From an uncultured virus (IMG/VR IMGVR_UViG_2199352004_000009) (taxonomy: Duplodnaviria > Heunggongvirae > Uroviricota > Caudoviricetes): a stretch of DNA of 64,000 nucleotides. The stretch is from the IMG/VR virus record IMGVR_UViG_2199352004_000009. One strand, given 5' to 3'. The number at the start of each line of letters is the position of its first letter. The first letter of the stretch is position 1. The notes beneath the pieces are model-generated. The model had not been told where the DNA came from and did not search any database. It saw only the letters and a list, made by a program, of their open reading frames with translations. Of this stretch, positions 2,335 through 6,109 are shown piece after piece. Position numbers and translations under genes: made by a program.

Positions 2335-2824
2335 TAAACTAAATTTAACTTTTCCGATTATTAATTATTCTGGTGGACAACACATAATTACGTATGGTAG
2401 ATCTCCTTCGTTAACATATTATACAGTTTCAGCTAAGTTAGATCTATCAATGTTTAAGTATAAACCAACGATACGGTATTGTGAAATTGTTGGTGGAGGT
2501 TTTTTGCGTCCGCATATAGATCATGCAATAACATGTTGTGTTAATTTTTATATTCAATCTAATAGTTGCACTACTCATTTTTATGAAGCGCAGGCTGGCG
2601 CAAGGAGAGAACGATATAATGGAAAGACTACGTCAAATTTATACGATGTGAATGATCTCAATGAAGTTTCTTCGTTTGTGGCGGCAGATGGTGATTGCTA
2701 TTTGTTAGATGTTAGTCAGATACATTCAGTTAGTATCCCAAAATCTGGTGTTAGAAAGTTTCTTAGCTTTAACTGGTTTGACCACTCATACGAAGAAATC
2801 AAAGAAAGTTTGACTTGCAATTAA
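2327..2824 (+). CDS. 2OG-Fe(II) oxygenase-like protein
   Basis: PHIDH ... DVSQIHSV ... RKFLS pattern. Confidence 0.6.
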   Translation: MFNKLNLTFPIINYSGGQHIITYGRSPSLTYYTVSAKLDLSMFKYKPTIRYCEIVGGGFLRPHIDHAITCCVNFYIQSNSCTTHFYEAQAGARRERYNGKTTSNLYDVNDLNEVSSFVAADGDCYLLDVSQIHSVSIPKSGVRKFLSFNWFDHSYEEIKESLTCN

Positions 2825-2838
2825 ATTTGTAGTATAAT
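2810..2838 (+). promoter_or_regulatory. sigma70-type (early) promoter, probably leaderless transcript
   Basis: TTGACT (2810-2815), 17 nt, TATAAT (2833-2838). The ATG at 2845 follows after 6 nt with no SD. Confidence 0.8.
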
Positions 2839-2844
2839 TACTAC

Positions 2845-3498
2845 ATGAAGACATTTATACACCATGATCTACCCAAGCTCGAACGCACCACTGCTGCCAA
2901 TGGCACACGAGTATATAAAACACCGACGGGTAGAGCCTATCCATCGGTCACAACCGTTACGTCCCTACATTCAGCAAAAGGAATTGCAGAATGGCGGCGC
3001 AGAGTTGGTAATGAAGAAGCGAATAGGGTATCCGCAAGAGCATCTTCCAGAGGAACAAGAGTTCACACCCTCTGTGAACATTATCTGCTAGGTAAGAATC
3101 CTGAACCAGATATTTTTGATGCAGAGATTTTCAATTCAATGAAACTCTGGTTAAATGATATTGATAACATCCACTGTTTAGAAACTCCACTATATTCTGA
3201 CTTCTTGGAAGTGGCGGGAACTGTAGACTGCATTGCTGAATTCCAAGGCAAGCTGTCAGTTATAGATTTTAAAACTGCAAATAAGCCCAAAGACAGGGAA
3301 GATATATATAATTACTTTATGCAAACAGCGGCATACGCAGTTGCATTTGAAGAACGCACAGGCATTCCAATTGGTAGACTAGTGATTATTATGGGTGTGG
3401 AAAACGATGATCCACGACTGTTTATTGAGAAACGTGACAACTGGATCGGAGGATTTAGAAAGTTACGTCTAGAATACAAGAATGCCCACAATATTTGA
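2845..3498 (+). CDS. PD-(D/E)XK exonuclease (Cas4-like fold, common in T4-like phages)
   Basis: YPSVTTV, RGTRVH, AGTVDCIAE, IDFKT and YFMQTAAYA motifs. Confidence 0.85.
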   Translation: MKTFIHHDLPKLERTTAANGTRVYKTPTGRAYPSVTTVTSLHSAKGIAEWRRRVGNEEANRVSARASSRGTRVHTLCEHYLLGKNPEPDIFDAEIFNSMKLWLNDIDNIHCLETPLYSDFLEVAGTVDCIAEFQGKLSVIDFKTANKPKDREDIYNYFMQTAAYAVAFEERTGIPIGRLVIIMGVENDDPRLFIEKRDNWIGGFRKLRLEYKNAHNI

Positions 3499-3523
3499 CT
3501 TGTAAATCATTAAAGGGTATACT
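3495..3523 (+). promoter_or_regulatory. sigma70-type promoter (candidate tmRNA promoter)
   Basis: TTGACT (3495-3500), 17 nt, TATACT (3518-3523). Confidence 0.65.
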
Positions 3524-3524
3524 T

Positions 3525-3734
3525 ATGTTATACATCGATTATAATTTTGATCTTGAAGATGGATATATTTTGTTTGATGAAGAATTGCATCTTGCATCGC
3601 AGGAAAAGAAACCTGATCGAATTTGGGGTTCATTACCTAAAGGATGGAAAGATGGAGACATGTTTAAATTACAGGTCAACGGTAGCGGTAGAGTAATGCT
3701 TGTGAAAGCAACTCAACCCAACGGTGGCTTATAA
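3525..3734 (+). CDS. hypothetical protein (69 aa)
   Basis: ORF from ATG 3525. The track's TTG start at 3495 coincides with the -35 box. Confidence 0.55.
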   Translation: MLYIDYNFDLEDGYILFDEELHLASQEKKPDRIWGSLPKGWKDGDMFKLQVNGSGRVMLVKATQPNGGL

Positions 3735-3812
3735 GGAATTGTTGTAATCCCTTCAAAGCGAAGGACTTCTGGACGCGAGTTCGACTCTCGCCACCTCCAC
3801 CATAAGGATTGT

Positions 3813-3971
3813 ATGGATGAGCAGGATAAATTGAAAGAGTTACAGGAACATCTAGCAAAAGATTTGGTTCATTTGGAAGAAAATGAATCACTATCAGAAC
3901 AGCAGTTAGATAAAATAACTGACACTTATTCAAAAGTCTATGACATCGTTACAAAAATAAAATCTTTATGA
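3813..3971 (+). CDS. 52-aa ORF inside the tmRNA intervening segment (MDEQDKLKELQEHLAKDLVHLEENESLSEQQLDKITDTYSKVYDIVTKIKSL)
   Basis: ATG 3813 to TGA 3969-3971, preceded by TAAGGA (3803-3808, short spacing). Fills 159 of 170 nt of the segment; helical, charged composition. Confidence 0.55.
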   Translation: MDEQDKLKELQEHLAKDLVHLEENESLSEQQLDKITDTYSKVYDIVTKIKSL

Positions 3972-4077
3972 TGGGGGTGCCTTGGTTTCGACAGAGGTAG
4001 ATAGTAGAGACGGCAACACGGGAATGTGAAACCCGTAGGATTGGGGAAACTCGGTCGAAGAAGCAAAAGAAGTAAAT

Positions 4078-4110
4078 GCAAACGACACAGTCTACGCATT
4101 AGCAGCCTAA
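4078..4110 (+). other. tmRNA proteolysis tag reading frame ANDTVYALAA*
   Basis: TAAAT immediately before the resume codon, then GCA AAC GAC ACA GTC TAC GCA TTA GCA GCC TAA. The stop lies in the loop of hairpin AGCAGC/GCTGCT. Matches the E. coli-type ANDENYALAA tag. Confidence 0.92.
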
Positions 4111-4175
4111 ACGCTGCTTAGGGTTTCGGTAGGTTTCCTCGTAACAGAATAACCTACCACTAATAAGGAAACTAG

Positions 4176-4670
4176 ATGTTAGGTATTGTTTTAGGTAATG
4201 GTCCAAGCAAATCTGCATATAATCGTTCTGGTGATATTGTCATTGGCTGTAACTTTCCAGGTGAATTTAGTGTTGATGCTACTGTAGTGTGCGATGAAGA
4301 GATTGTTTTTATATTGAAAAACAATCCAGAGGCTATAACATGCCCCATGATTGTTAGCACTAAAGTTTATTCTAAGATGAAAGAATATAAGATTGAAGAC
4401 AAGTACACCATCTTAGCTGTTTTTAAACCAAGAGATTGGTTTAATGCTGCTCACTATGCAGCAAACTATCTTCTTACTATCGGATGTGCTCAGATAGATA
4501 TATGGGGATGTGATTCTATTTTTGCTGATACTACAGAATCAACCACAGACATTATTATAAGTAAAGAAGACAAGAGTGATATGAGGTTTATAAGAAATTG
4601 GAGAAAAGTTTGGACTGACATTTTTGCCAACAATCCAATGACATTGTTCAAAGTAATAAAATATCAATAG
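4176..4670 (+). CDS. hypothetical protein with N-terminal GNGPS Rossmann-like motif (DUF115/glycosyltransferase-like)
   Basis: VLGNGPS ... IGCN ... IWGCDS; SD AAGGA upstream. Confidence 0.5.
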   Translation: MLGIVLGNGPSKSAYNRSGDIVIGCNFPGEFSVDATVVCDEEIVFILKNNPEAITCPMIVSTKVYSKMKEYKIEDKYTILAVFKPRDWFNAAHYAANYLLTIGCAQIDIWGCDSIFADTTESTTDIIISKEDKSDMRFIRNWRKVWTDIFANNPMTLFKVIKYQ

Positions 4671-4679
4671 GAGATAAAC

Positions 4680-4868
4680 ATGAAATTTTTAATAGCAACA
4701 CTGGCTTTGGTTTTCGCTGGAATAGCATATGCTGCAGAGCCTGCAAAACCTCCAGCAAAAAAAGCACCTGTAGAAAAGAAGTGCGATCCGCTGAAACAAA
4801 AAGACTGCACGAAAGCTGAACCTTCTGCAAATAAGCCAGTGCCAAAAAAGAAGGCAGAGCCTAAATAA
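4680..4868 (+). CDS. small exported Pro/Lys-rich protein
   Basis: SD AGGAG; signal peptide MKFLIATLALVFAGIAYA; CDPLKQKDC. Confidence 0.65.
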   Translation: MKFLIATLALVFAGIAYAAEPAKPPAKKAPVEKKCDPLKQKDCTKAEPSANKPVPKKKAEPK

Positions 4869-5025: not shown

Positions 5026-5595
5026 ATGCAAAAAGAAAAGAAATATCTATTATTTCAAATTTTAGTTGCAGTGTTTAGTATTTGCGTTATGCTTTACACC
5101 GCTAAAACTATTGGTTCTAAGGAACCAAGATTACTTAATGTTGCTTACTCAGAATTAACACCATCTGCCAAGAAACAAATTGATTGTCTTGCGGATAATA
5201 TATATTATGAATCAGCTTATGAACCTGAACGTGGCCAAGTCGCTGTTGCTCTAGTGACCTTAAATAGAGTTAACCATCCAGCATTTCCAAAAGACGTGTG
5301 TGGTGTTGTCAAGCAGAAAACAAACTCTACTTGTCAATTTTCTTGGTTTTGTATGAATGTGCCTCATAAAAACAGCGCAGTATATGAAGAAGTTAGGAGA
5401 GTTGCCCTGCATGTCTACTCAAACTATGAAAACATAGTAGACATAACAAAGGGATCTCTTTATTATCATGCAGATTATGTAAATCCAGGATGGAAACTGC
5501 ATAAGACTGTTGTTATTGGACGTCATATATTTTATAAAGGTAATGACAATGATGCAAAAACTAAACCTCCAACTAAAGGAAGATCAGAATTCTAA
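5026..5595 (+). CDS. SleB-like cell wall hydrolase (Hydrolase_2)
   Basis: CLADNIYYES, VALVTLNRV, CQFSWFC, YYHADYVNPGW and IGRHIFY; N-terminal TM segment; SD AAGGAG. Confidence 0.9.
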   Translation: MQKEKKYLLFQILVAVFSICVMLYTAKTIGSKEPRLLNVAYSELTPSAKKQIDCLADNIYYESAYEPERGQVAVALVTLNRVNHPAFPKDVCGVVKQKTNSTCQFSWFCMNVPHKNSAVYEEVRRVALHVYSNYENIVDITKGSLYYHADYVNPGWKLHKTVVIGRHIFYKGNDNDAKTKPPTKGRSEF

Positions 5596-6109
5596 ACATT
5601 CTTTCTTCTTGTTGATGGAAGATATTACGTTAGAATCTTGTAAGGGTGCGGTTGAGTGGATCTTTGAGTGTAATTTCGGGGAACAACGACCTGATATGCT
5701 TAACTTAGTTATTTGTTCTCCAGGTGGAGATCTTAATGCTGCGTTTGCATTGGTTGATACTATGCGTGGATCTGCTATTCCAATTAGAACTATTGGTCTT
5801 GGACAAATTGCTTCTGCTGGATTAATGATCTTTATTTCTGGTGATAAGGGTCAACGAATTCTTACACCAAATACTTCTATTCTTTCACATCAGTACTCAT
5901 GGGGTGCTTTTGGTAAGGAACATGAATTATTTGCACAGATTAAAGAATTTGATTTAACCACAAAGCGAATGATTGCGCATTATAAAAAGTGTACTGGATT
6001 AACAGATGCTAAAATCAGAGAAGTTCTTTTGCCTCCACAAGATGTTTGGCTAAGCGCTAATGAAGCTAAAAAGTTAGGATTATGCGATGATGTTAAAGAA
6101 TTATCTTAA
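5549..6109 (+). CDS. clpP: ClpP-family serine protease subunit
   Basis: ICSPGGD, GQIASAG (catalytic Ser), LSHQ (His) and DVWLSANEAKKLGLCD. Start chosen at ATG 5549 after AAAGG; overlaps the hydrolase 3' end. Confidence 0.88.
   Translation: MMQKLNLQLKEDQNSKHSFFLLMEDITLESCKGAVEWIFECNFGEQRPDMLNLVICSPGGDLNAAFALVDTMRGSAIPIRTIGLGQIASAGLMIFISGDKGQRILTPNTSILSHQYSWGAFGKEHELFAQIKEFDLTTKRMIAHYKKCTGLTDAKIREVLLPPQDVWLSANEAKKLGLCDDVKELS

Follow-up and report, generated by a model that had tools for sequence, protein, structure and literature searches.

Two-piece tmRNA genes occur in Alpha- and Betaproteobacteria, in cyanobacteria and in some phages (Keiler, 2000; Sharkady & Williams, 2004; both as cited in the accessible sections of PMC3985003), phage Melnitz among them (PMC9004378), and the same sections of PMC3985003 describe processing of these tmRNAs by RNase P and 3' trimming. 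The intervening segment (IVS) between the two pieces accepts functional DNA, as the accessible part of PMC11915505 reports an intact tRNA-Ala gene in one permuted tmRNA and a repetitive element in the longest IVS, but these insertions were each seen once in that part of the source, whereas the protein ORFs described herein recur with a common translational frame. Protein genes within a removed part of a tmRNA gene are also known in the form of LAGLIDADG homing-endonuclease genes, which according to the accessible part of the same paper are present in 36 of 883 group I introns in the tmRNA T-loop. They differ from the present case both in position (the T-loop rather than between the CCA and the 5' end) and in nature (a selfish homing gene rather than diverse cargo). 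This 2025 tmRNA database paper has homing-endonuclease genes only in group I introns, and the terms 'ORF' and 'open reading' are absent from its main text (PMC11915505).

The nearest known analogue of a coding tmRNA spacer is the ORF-bearing IVS of 23S rRNA (the S23p system). In Coxiella burnetii, RNase III cuts this IVS out, and the accessible sections of PMC4990558 describe its ORF as decaying and not synthesised in vivo. As far as these sections go, the 23S rRNA IVS resembles the element described here in being a stem-closed segment of a stable-RNA gene that contains an ORF and is cut out without religation, which leaves the mature RNA in pieces, but it holds one ORF family where the tmRNA slot holds many unrelated families under purifying selection, and here the host gene is a tmRNA with tRNA-type ends (CCA and, by homology, an RNase P site) and a stem that supplies the Shine-Dalgarno (SD) sequence and the stop codon. 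While a protein gene in an excised stable-RNA segment is known, a processing helix that also provides exchangeable cargo with its ribosome-binding site and stop codon is apparently undescribed. The accessible main texts of PMC9004378, PMC11915505, PMC3985003, PMC3978253, PMC4383926 and PMC10117765 contain no description of coding tmRNA spacers, so that the first-pass annotation of this DNA, which knew of no account of the arrangement, agrees with the open-access main texts searched.

The DNA analyzed here is a 64-kb stretch (hereafter the window) of a complete 168,097-bp T4-like phage record with terminal repeats. ARAGORN finds a single gene in it, a permuted tmRNA at 3710-4201 with the tag ANDTVYALAA, and the assignment is matched by the Rfam models tmRNA_permuted (RF04321; 123.4 bits against a gathering score of 47, 3740-4110, with model positions 1-213 complete) and beta_tmRNA (RF01850; 102.1 bits against a gathering score of 84, 3699-4163). 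The order is that of a permuted tmRNA, in which the T-arm, the acceptor 3' strand and the CCA precede the acceptor 5' strand and the tag-coding part. The 7-bp acceptor stem formed by GGGGGUG (3973-3979) and CACCUCC (3792-3798) has G.U as its third pair and so carries the G3.U70 alanine identity pair, and the tag frame has a resume codon and ends in a hydrophobic ALAA-type tail followed by a stop. All sequence features tested place the tmRNA of the window in the permuted class, with which it shares the order acceptor piece, CCA, IVS and coding piece; the difference lies in what the spacer contains. The Rfam consensus IVS is a few tens of nucleotides long with no modelled content, whereas that of the window is 170 nt with an ORF under selection, and relatives have spacers of 82-382 nt with other ORFs. 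The features are listed in Table 1. By homology to other two-piece tmRNAs, we infer that the precursor is cleaved into two base-paired pieces and that the IVS would be missing from the mature molecule.

Table 1. Position and basis of the features of the permuted tmRNA gene and its spacer, numbered from the first nucleotide of the window.
Feature	Position	Strand	Basis or content
Acceptor (3') piece of permuted tmRNA	3740..3802	+	RF04321 alignment, ARAGORN
T-arm	3775-3791	+	Rfam alignment and sequence
Acceptor 3' strand CACCUCC	3792-3798	+	Rfam alignment and sequence
Discriminator A, then encoded CCA	3799, 3800-3802	+	Rfam alignment and sequence
Closing helix, 5' arm	3799..3810	+	A3799, C3800 mismatch, C3801-U3810; complementarity, MFE and centroid folds
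Intervening segment (IVS), 170 nt	3803..3972	+	Insertion between CCA and 5' strand in both Rfam models; junction finder gives same boundaries
UAAGGA, SD-like hexamer abutting CCA	3803..3808	+	Sequence; 5' strand of closing helix
ORF, 52 codons and TGA	3813..3971	+	ATG 3813, TGA 3969-3971; acidic protein, predicted two-helix hairpin, phage-only family
Closing helix, 3' arm	3961..3972	+	Encodes last codons K-S-L, TGA stop and -1 U
Coding (5') piece	3973..4165	+	Opens with GGGGGUG 3973-3979, closes with terminal hairpin; RF01850, RF04321 (to 4110), ARAGORN
Tag reading frame GCA...TAA	4078..4110	+	ANDTVYALAA and stop; ARAGORN, coding part 369-401 of gene starting at 3710

The phage encodes a T4 gp32-type single-strand DNA-binding protein (phrog_224, E = 1e-105) and a helicase loader (phrog_269), with a PD-(D/E)XK exonuclease gene directly upstream of the tmRNA (Pfam, PHROGs) and a ClpP-family protease gene 1.3 kb downstream in the window (PF00574, 98.6 bits). 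No match to SmpB (PF01668) was found in the complete 168,097-bp record, the controls being positive in 10 of 14 genomes, and the phage presumably relies on the SmpB of its host. There was no Rfam match to a group I intron in the window, where the two tmRNA models alone gave hits, and the T-loop is uninterrupted in the alignment. A scan of 2700-4800 gave five promoter-like sites, where 7.2 are expected, and found no terminator on the plus strand. The RNA runs that were found contain 7-10% of the sampled words, and contigs assembled from four of them derive from relatives and extend over both tmRNA pieces; none of these metatranscriptome contigs covers 3818-3964, contigs of this kind being unable to show absence or RNA ends.

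We propose that the IVS is a genuine protein-coding and exchangeable gene slot that is expressed from the tmRNA precursor, and that the processing helix gives the enclosed gene its ribosome-binding site and stop codon, a reading to which we assign a probability of roughly 80%. The first-pass annotation had placed a 52-codon ORF in the 170-nt segment, and all of its coordinates hold, including that of the TGA, which stops 1 nt short of the mature 5' G (G3973). Its caveat that only 4 nt separate UAAGGA from the AUG also stands, the gap in other spacers being 3-8 nt. Considered as a single sequence, the ORF is only suggestive because 204 of 5000 dinucleotide shuffles of the spacer interior (4%) contain one of equal coverage, and the comparative data are decisive. 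That figure of 4% is one of the points in favor of a chance or decaying frame in a non-coding spacer, in which apparent conservation would reflect constraints on the RNA. Two others are a spurious 85-aa ORF on the opposite strand across the T-arm and the Coxiella IVS ORF, reported as decaying in the accessible part of PMC4990558. The minus-strand ORF itself (3676-3933) was rejected as a gene, since it runs through the T-arm in a frame that shows no selection.

The 52-aa product had been expected to be a small helical protein, and a two-helix hairpin is indeed predicted for it (pLDDT 87). Searches of Pfam and PHROGs gave sub-threshold coiled-coil-like matches only (best E = 0.007), with no endonuclease domain by Pfam, while Foldseek found nothing in the PDB at E <= 0.001 and the ESM Atlas has one unnamed 58-member cluster at 0.78. 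There is no Pfam match between the 52-aa protein and the S23p (23S-IVS) family at E <= 1, and the PDB entry titled S23 ribosomal protein family gives a non-significant Foldseek E of 6.3.

Homologues of the 52-aa protein were found in six viral loci by single-sequence search and in 54 by alignment, amounting to 55 distinct loci. All 50 candidates taken from a set of 5.8 billion proteins match it at E <= 0.01 and nearly all are 51-57 aa in length, with no informative names, and by profile search 75 representative protein clusters match the family at E <= 1e-3. There was no tblastn match to the protein among 50,697 deposited phage records. A bacterial origin was rejected after 185,579 species genomes gave two Streptomyces matches of 15-18 residues that were judged spurious, as was the idea of a universal tmRNA cofactor, the family being present in only four of the 94 tmRNA loci of a sample that was not selected on the spacer, many of these with flanks of only 300 nt.

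A codon alignment of 31 unique family sequences, 12 from inside spacers and 19 from outside, shows that the gene is under purifying selection in its own frame. The dN/dS value of all 31 copies is 0.11 in the true frame compared to 0.74 and 3.09 upon shifts of +1 and +2, respectively. For the 12 copies inside spacers the corresponding values are 0.19, 0.87 and 3.06, and for the 19 copies outside they are 0.09, 0.75 and 2.75. Insertions and deletions in the family alignment come in multiples of three and comprise whole codons; one member (L057) is frameshifted near codon 37. The suggestion that the spacer is protein-coding is hence borne out across the 55 loci, and frame-specific selection, whole-codon indels and the existence of 75 protein clusters all speak against a chance frame.

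The same applies to the genomic settings in which the gene is retained. Contexts were assigned to the 55 loci by Rfam together with a junction finder that needs a T-arm, 7 nt plus ACCA, a complementary GGG... strand and a UCGA motif, and a permuted tmRNA was found at most 1.5 kb away in 52 of them. The 52-aa gene is inside an intact spacer in 20 of the 55 loci and immediately upstream of the acceptor piece in 21. In nine more it is located 200-560 nt upstream and in two (L046, L045) it adjoins the coding piece, with the upstream side cut or rearranged; L045 is the rearranged one and has lost the upstream acceptor piece. In the remaining three (L025, L027, L054) there is no tmRNA within 1.5 kb. 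As the gene is outside the spacer in 33 of 55 loci, the spacer is not needed for its function. Degenerate tmRNA remains, in which the T-arm is deleted and the acceptor pairing is broken, surround the ORF in L002 and L003, and downstream of them comes an intact permuted tmRNA with a non-coding 119-nt spacer. The upstream copies in L005, L009, L010 and L014 keep a relic of the helix 3' strand (...AAAAUCUU.. UGA U) at their ends. The L002 and L003 remnants and the relics of the upstream copies indicate that the 52-aa gene outlives the decay or replacement of the tmRNA around it, and comparison of close relatives (L017 with L014, and L001 with L002) reveals more than one move of the gene between the spacer and the slot just upstream. 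Retention of the protein in three genomic contexts, including beside degenerate tmRNA remnants, is not what a frame maintained by RNA constraints would give.

The two ends of the excised segment form a closing stem of about 14 pairs with covariation. In the window CATAAGGATT (3801-3810) is complementary to AATCTTTATG (3961-3970) with one G.U, A3799 pairs with U3972, and C3800 and A3971 are mismatched, all as described in the first-pass annotation and present in both the MFE and centroid folds of the precursor (3735-4170; z = -4.0), in which the closing helix extends the acceptor stem. The excised 170-nt piece folded by itself retains the terminal helix (z = -3.4), as that annotation had cautioned it might. 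In these folds the UAAGGA of the precursor and that of the excised piece alike are buried in a stable helix, which, together with the short SD-AUG gap and the reported lack of synthesis of the Coxiella IVS ORF, weighs against the gene-slot reading. Burial of the SD-like motif and the last codons was likewise correctly anticipated. Statistics were taken from 92 unique spacers, in some of which positions +1 to +6 are constrained by the search pattern. A73 is paired with U-1 in 96% of them, C75 with G-3 in 97% and A76 with U-4 in 100%, C74 and A-2 are never paired, and pairing of +1 to +11 with -5 to -15 ranges from 80 to 100%. The covariation of the closing helix is clear at the unconstrained position +7 (A-U 38, U-A 20, G-C 17, C-G 6), and +8 and +11 covary in the same way. 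Sliding the register by 1-3 nt lowers pairing over +1 to +14 from 0.83 to 0.41-0.55, and when tails were dealt to other heads the observed pairing was reached in none of 2000 shuffles.

Such a helix might be a regulatory switch by which spacer ORF translation and tmRNA maturation depend on each other, either because RNase P and 3' processing have to wait for ribosomes to open the helix or because processing must free the spacer before the buried SD becomes usable, and the amount of peptide would then report or set that of tmRNA. We consider such coupling unlikely, even though the SD, the last codons, the stop, the CCA and the -1 to -4 leader are all gathered in one helix stacked on the acceptor stem, the helix is maintained by covariation across unrelated cargos, and a ribosome halted at the UGA would be expected to hold the entire acceptor 5' strand in its mRNA channel. 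Against it, short spacers with neither ORF nor SD retain the closing helix with other sequences (e.g., UAAAGUAUA.../...ACUUUAUAAU), hence the helix is an RNA feature in its own right and is needed for the RNA alone, and the 52-aa gene does equally well outside the spacer, as seen in the 33 loci and their dN/dS. Compared to the short non-coding spacers, coding spacers use a version of the helix whose 5' strand can be read as an SD.

In terms of a gene slot expressed from the precursor, the arrangement would work as follows. The tmRNA precursor is probably transcribed as a single RNA, because the spacer ends covary as a helix and there would otherwise be no selection for them to pair. The helix, as an extension of the acceptor stem, would keep the two tmRNA halves in register for tRNA-type processing enzymes, presumably RNase P and the 3' trimming that also acts on other two-piece tmRNAs, and RNase III excision is also conceivable since the acceptor stem and closing helix together are predicted to stack about 22 pairs. 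The 5' strand of the helix that follows the CCA would, with UAAGGA, serve as the ribosome-binding site of the enclosed cargo, and the 3' strand (..UCUUUA UGA U, preceding the mature G) would provide its last codons and its stop 1 nt before that G. The cargo itself is interchangeable, being the 52-residue acidic helical-hairpin protein in the window and any of about 50 unrelated small proteins in related phages. From these features we infer that the spacer ORF is translated, from the precursor, from the released piece or from both. Our analysis demonstrates coding selection, conserved framing of SD, start and stop relative to the processing sites, helix covariation and diversity of cargo.

The diversity of cargo was first evident in loci with an upstream copy of the 52-aa gene, as their tmRNA spacers often contain another ORF with the same framing. 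Examples are ORFs of 123 aa in L026 and L055, 54 aa in L053 and 32 aa in L024, and there are two tiny hydrophobic ORFs in the tmRNA spacers of L038 and L047. Further spacers were collected by two scans. A scan with GGUCCACCA+UAAGGA (a 15-mer) gave 80 loci with DNA, and the junction could be found in 55; 18 of 20 tested loci without a findable 5' strand have no tmRNA by Rfam, and these loci were excluded as chance matches. The sample not selected on the spacer was scanned by T-arm, acceptor strand and CCA only, and comprises 120 loci (94 with a junction, eight incomplete and 18 without) and 88 unique spacers, reduced to 87 upon removal of the 673-nt L216 as a false junction. Of these 87, 39 have an ORF that is 20 aa or longer and spans 80% or more of the spacer, compared to 9.8 +/- 2.4 in shuffles (maximum 18). 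By length, such ORFs occur in one of 28 spacers of 30-80 nt (1.0 expected), in 20 of 41 of 81-120 nt (7.8 expected) and in all 18 of 121-400 nt (1.0 expected). They are also associated with an SD-like motif in the first 12 nt (both 27, ORF only 12, SD only 7, neither 41; Fisher p = 2e-7).

The pooled sets, with the UAAGGA-selected one included, contain 161 unique spacers, 104 of them with an ORF, and these ORFs fall into 54 blastp clusters. Their usual framing is a UAAGGA directly after the CCA, a start codon 3-8 nt later and a UGA that ends 1 nt short of the mature 5' G. Among the C-termini of the 71 ORFs whose stop lies exactly 1 nt ahead of G1, -SL (40), -FL (11) and -LL (9) predominate, and unrelated ORFs share these ends because the 3' strand of the helix dictates them. 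Spacer ORF families with several variants have dN/dS values of 0.08-0.24, so that values well below unity, which the first-pass annotation had put forward as a check, characterize these families as well as the 12 spacer copies of the 52-aa gene. Pfam recognizes three of 25 spacer ORFs above cut-off, namely a thioredoxin (L119, 75.4 bits), a DUF2061 protein (L084, 72.6 bits) and a PGDYG protein (L082, 27.8 against 27), and the L119 thioredoxin has ordinary phage relatives, such as a Limnohabitans phage gene at 46% identity. By Rfam, one full-length permuted tmRNA spans the ORF-bearing spacer in 18 of 20 loci tested. The two misses have insertions of 342-382 nt (L136, L065); L136 is the same contig and spacer as L029, in which the tmRNA scores 97.6 bits with laxer filters, and L065 gave only partial Rfam matches, to the coding piece. 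The window ORF is, by these comparisons, one of about 50 unrelated and interchangeable cargo ORFs in the slot. That Pfam-recognized proteins occupy the same slot is a further point against a chance frame. This reading is now scarcely credible, and in view of the frame-specific selection, the Pfam domains in the slot and the excess over shuffles we judge it refuted.

While 71 of the 104 pooled ORFs stop 1 nt before G1 and 14 do so 9-13 nt before it, the other 19 have no in-frame stop inside the spacer and continue for 13-81 nt in the mature 5' piece, their tails differing in length, hence the rule of a UGA at -4 is not universal. Judging from their frames, these read-through ORFs would reach a stop only on the uncut precursor and would become non-stop messages once it is cut. 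Some of them are conserved, as one family of 29 aa has a dN/dS of 0.11, and in another of 30 aa the body is conserved with a tail of either 8 or 22 residues.

These ends are relevant to the possibility that the spacer is a built-in substrate for trans-translation. Cleavage by RNase P would leave an excised mRNA with its stop 1 nt from the 3' end, or with none, and on a ribosome whose mRNA channel is nearly empty a release factor would be set against SmpB-tmRNA, such that the peptide is partly or wholly tagged by the phage tmRNA. The high proportion of stops 1 nt before G1, the 19 stopless ORFs, the 30-aa family whose tail varies beside a conserved body as if cleavage sets its end, the selection on the 29-aa read-through family and the nearby ClpP-family protease gene are all in keeping with this. 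Nevertheless, we think it improbable, as the UGA-U tail is also found in non-coding spacers and may be an RNA feature that ORFs have exploited, translation may use the uncut precursor, on which read-through ORFs do meet a stop, and in short spacers chance probably accounts for some of the 19 read-through ORFs. In its strongest form the spacer would be a purpose-built messenger, each round of maturation freeing an mRNA at the edge of a non-stop complex, and whether the peptide is released or instead tagged and degraded would reflect how release factor balances against the tmRNA-SmpB-Clp capacity of the phage itself. This would constitute a self-monitoring loop for trans-translation during infection if true, but we see only an outside chance that it is.

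The comparison also covers cultured phages. Phage Melnitz (MZ577097), with OM43 strain H5P1 as its host, has the same gene order as the window, with a PDDEXK nuclease, small ORFs, the tmRNA and the helicase loader. Its annotated tmRNA has the ARAGORN tag ANDNYVPVDYALAA, a 142-nt spacer and an 11-bp closing helix, and the spacer contains an unannotated ORF in which GGAG is followed after 6 nt by an ATG at locus position 1498 and which crosses the junction and extends to 1662. The Melnitz paper reports the two-piece tmRNA, and the words 'intervening' and 'spacer' have no occurrences in it (PMC9004378). The gene just upstream of the Melnitz tmRNA has 59% identity (E = 6e-30) to the spacer-internal ORF of L064, which argues that a second family alternates between the spacer and upstream slots. 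In Pseudomonas phage SM1 there is an unannotated permuted tmRNA with a non-coding spacer.

Our findings overturn the assumption that the segment removed from a two-piece tmRNA is a non-coding spacer, as nearly half of the spacers in this phage clade, and all of the long ones, encode proteins. The proposed design is a compact one, in which a single RNA helix is processing signal, ribosome-binding site and stop codon. Since they reside inside an RNA gene, spacer genes are easily missed by annotation, as is illustrated by the Melnitz spacer ORF, and masking tmRNA genes before gene calling loses the spacer proteins. A coding spacer is also a possible selective reason for phages to keep their tmRNA permuted, and it offers a natural system for how translation and stable-RNA maturation share one transcript. 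In T4-like phages of freshwater and marine environments, the tmRNA spacer is a hot spot of gene turnover.

The 52-aa family, encoded in the tmRNA spacer of the window and found at 55 viral loci, is also represented by copies that lie outside a spacer, and in two of these loci (L002 and L003) the 52-aa gene is bordered on both sides by decayed tmRNA fragments, in which the T-arm is deleted and the acceptor pairing is broken, while an intact permuted tmRNA lies directly downstream. This arrangement resembles a gene displacement caught in progress. A single decayed family member was found among the 55 loci, a frameshifted copy in L057, and a relic of the 3' strand of the spacer-closing helix persists downstream of it. 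In five further loci (L009-L013), the sequence upstream of position 1501 contains a promoter-like site close to consensus (TTGACT, 17 nt, TATAAT); the site ends one base 5' of the ATG of the displaced gene, and hence there is no space for a leader or SD sequence.

Features of the window and of the viral loci compared with it
Feature	Locus	Coordinates	Strand	Remarks
69-aa ORF	window	3525-3734	+	ends ~5 nt before acceptor piece
ClpP-family protease gene	window	5510-6106	+	PF00574, 98.6 bits; phrog_1827
52-aa gene with flanking decayed tmRNA fragments	L002	1461-1700
Porin-like ORF	L002	2248-3132		next after tmRNA region
One-piece standard tmRNA	L008	701-1232		RF00023, 73.7 bits; 96-kb viral contig
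Frameshifted 52-aa gene copy	L057	1501-1660
Permuted tmRNA, Pseudomonas phage SM1 (NC_041877)	L298	1205-1504		unannotated; RF04321, 118.6 bits; ARAGORN tag ANDTSFDVRLAA
tmRNA spacer ORF, cultured phage Melnitz (MZ577097, host OM43)	L299	1479-1662		unannotated; GGAG SD, ATG at 1498

The slot just upstream of the acceptor piece, which the 52-aa family occupies elsewhere, is filled in the window by a 69-aa ORF that matches nothing in Pfam or PHROGs and in phage Melnitz by gene 85, which lies 3 nt upstream of the tmRNA and shares 59% identity with the spacer ORF of another locus (L064). The frame of the Melnitz spacer ORF itself reads on past the spacer, covering 42 nt of the mature 5' piece. The spacer of SM1 (~110 nt) is non-coding and helix-closed, and its acceptor piece is matched at 82-84% identity in five further Pseudomonas phage genomes (UF_RH6, PaMx31, vB_PaeS_FBPa45, PA_L9, and a second SM1 record), giving six records. 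The spacer ORFs of five other loci (L065, L077, L089, L131, and L136) encode 101- to 123-aa products that form separate clusters by blastp and have an N-terminal MRIxELTES-like motif in common, and they may represent a divergent superfamily.

The one-piece tmRNA of L008 and the permuted gene of the window are identical over 32 nt (T-arm, acceptor strand, and CCA), which hints that the one-piece and two-piece phage forms are close kin. No SmpB gene is present in the phage of the window. Downstream of the tmRNA, at a distance of 1.3 kb, lies the ClpP-family gene, and thus the phage carries an RNA for degradation tagging as well as a subunit of the Clp protease.
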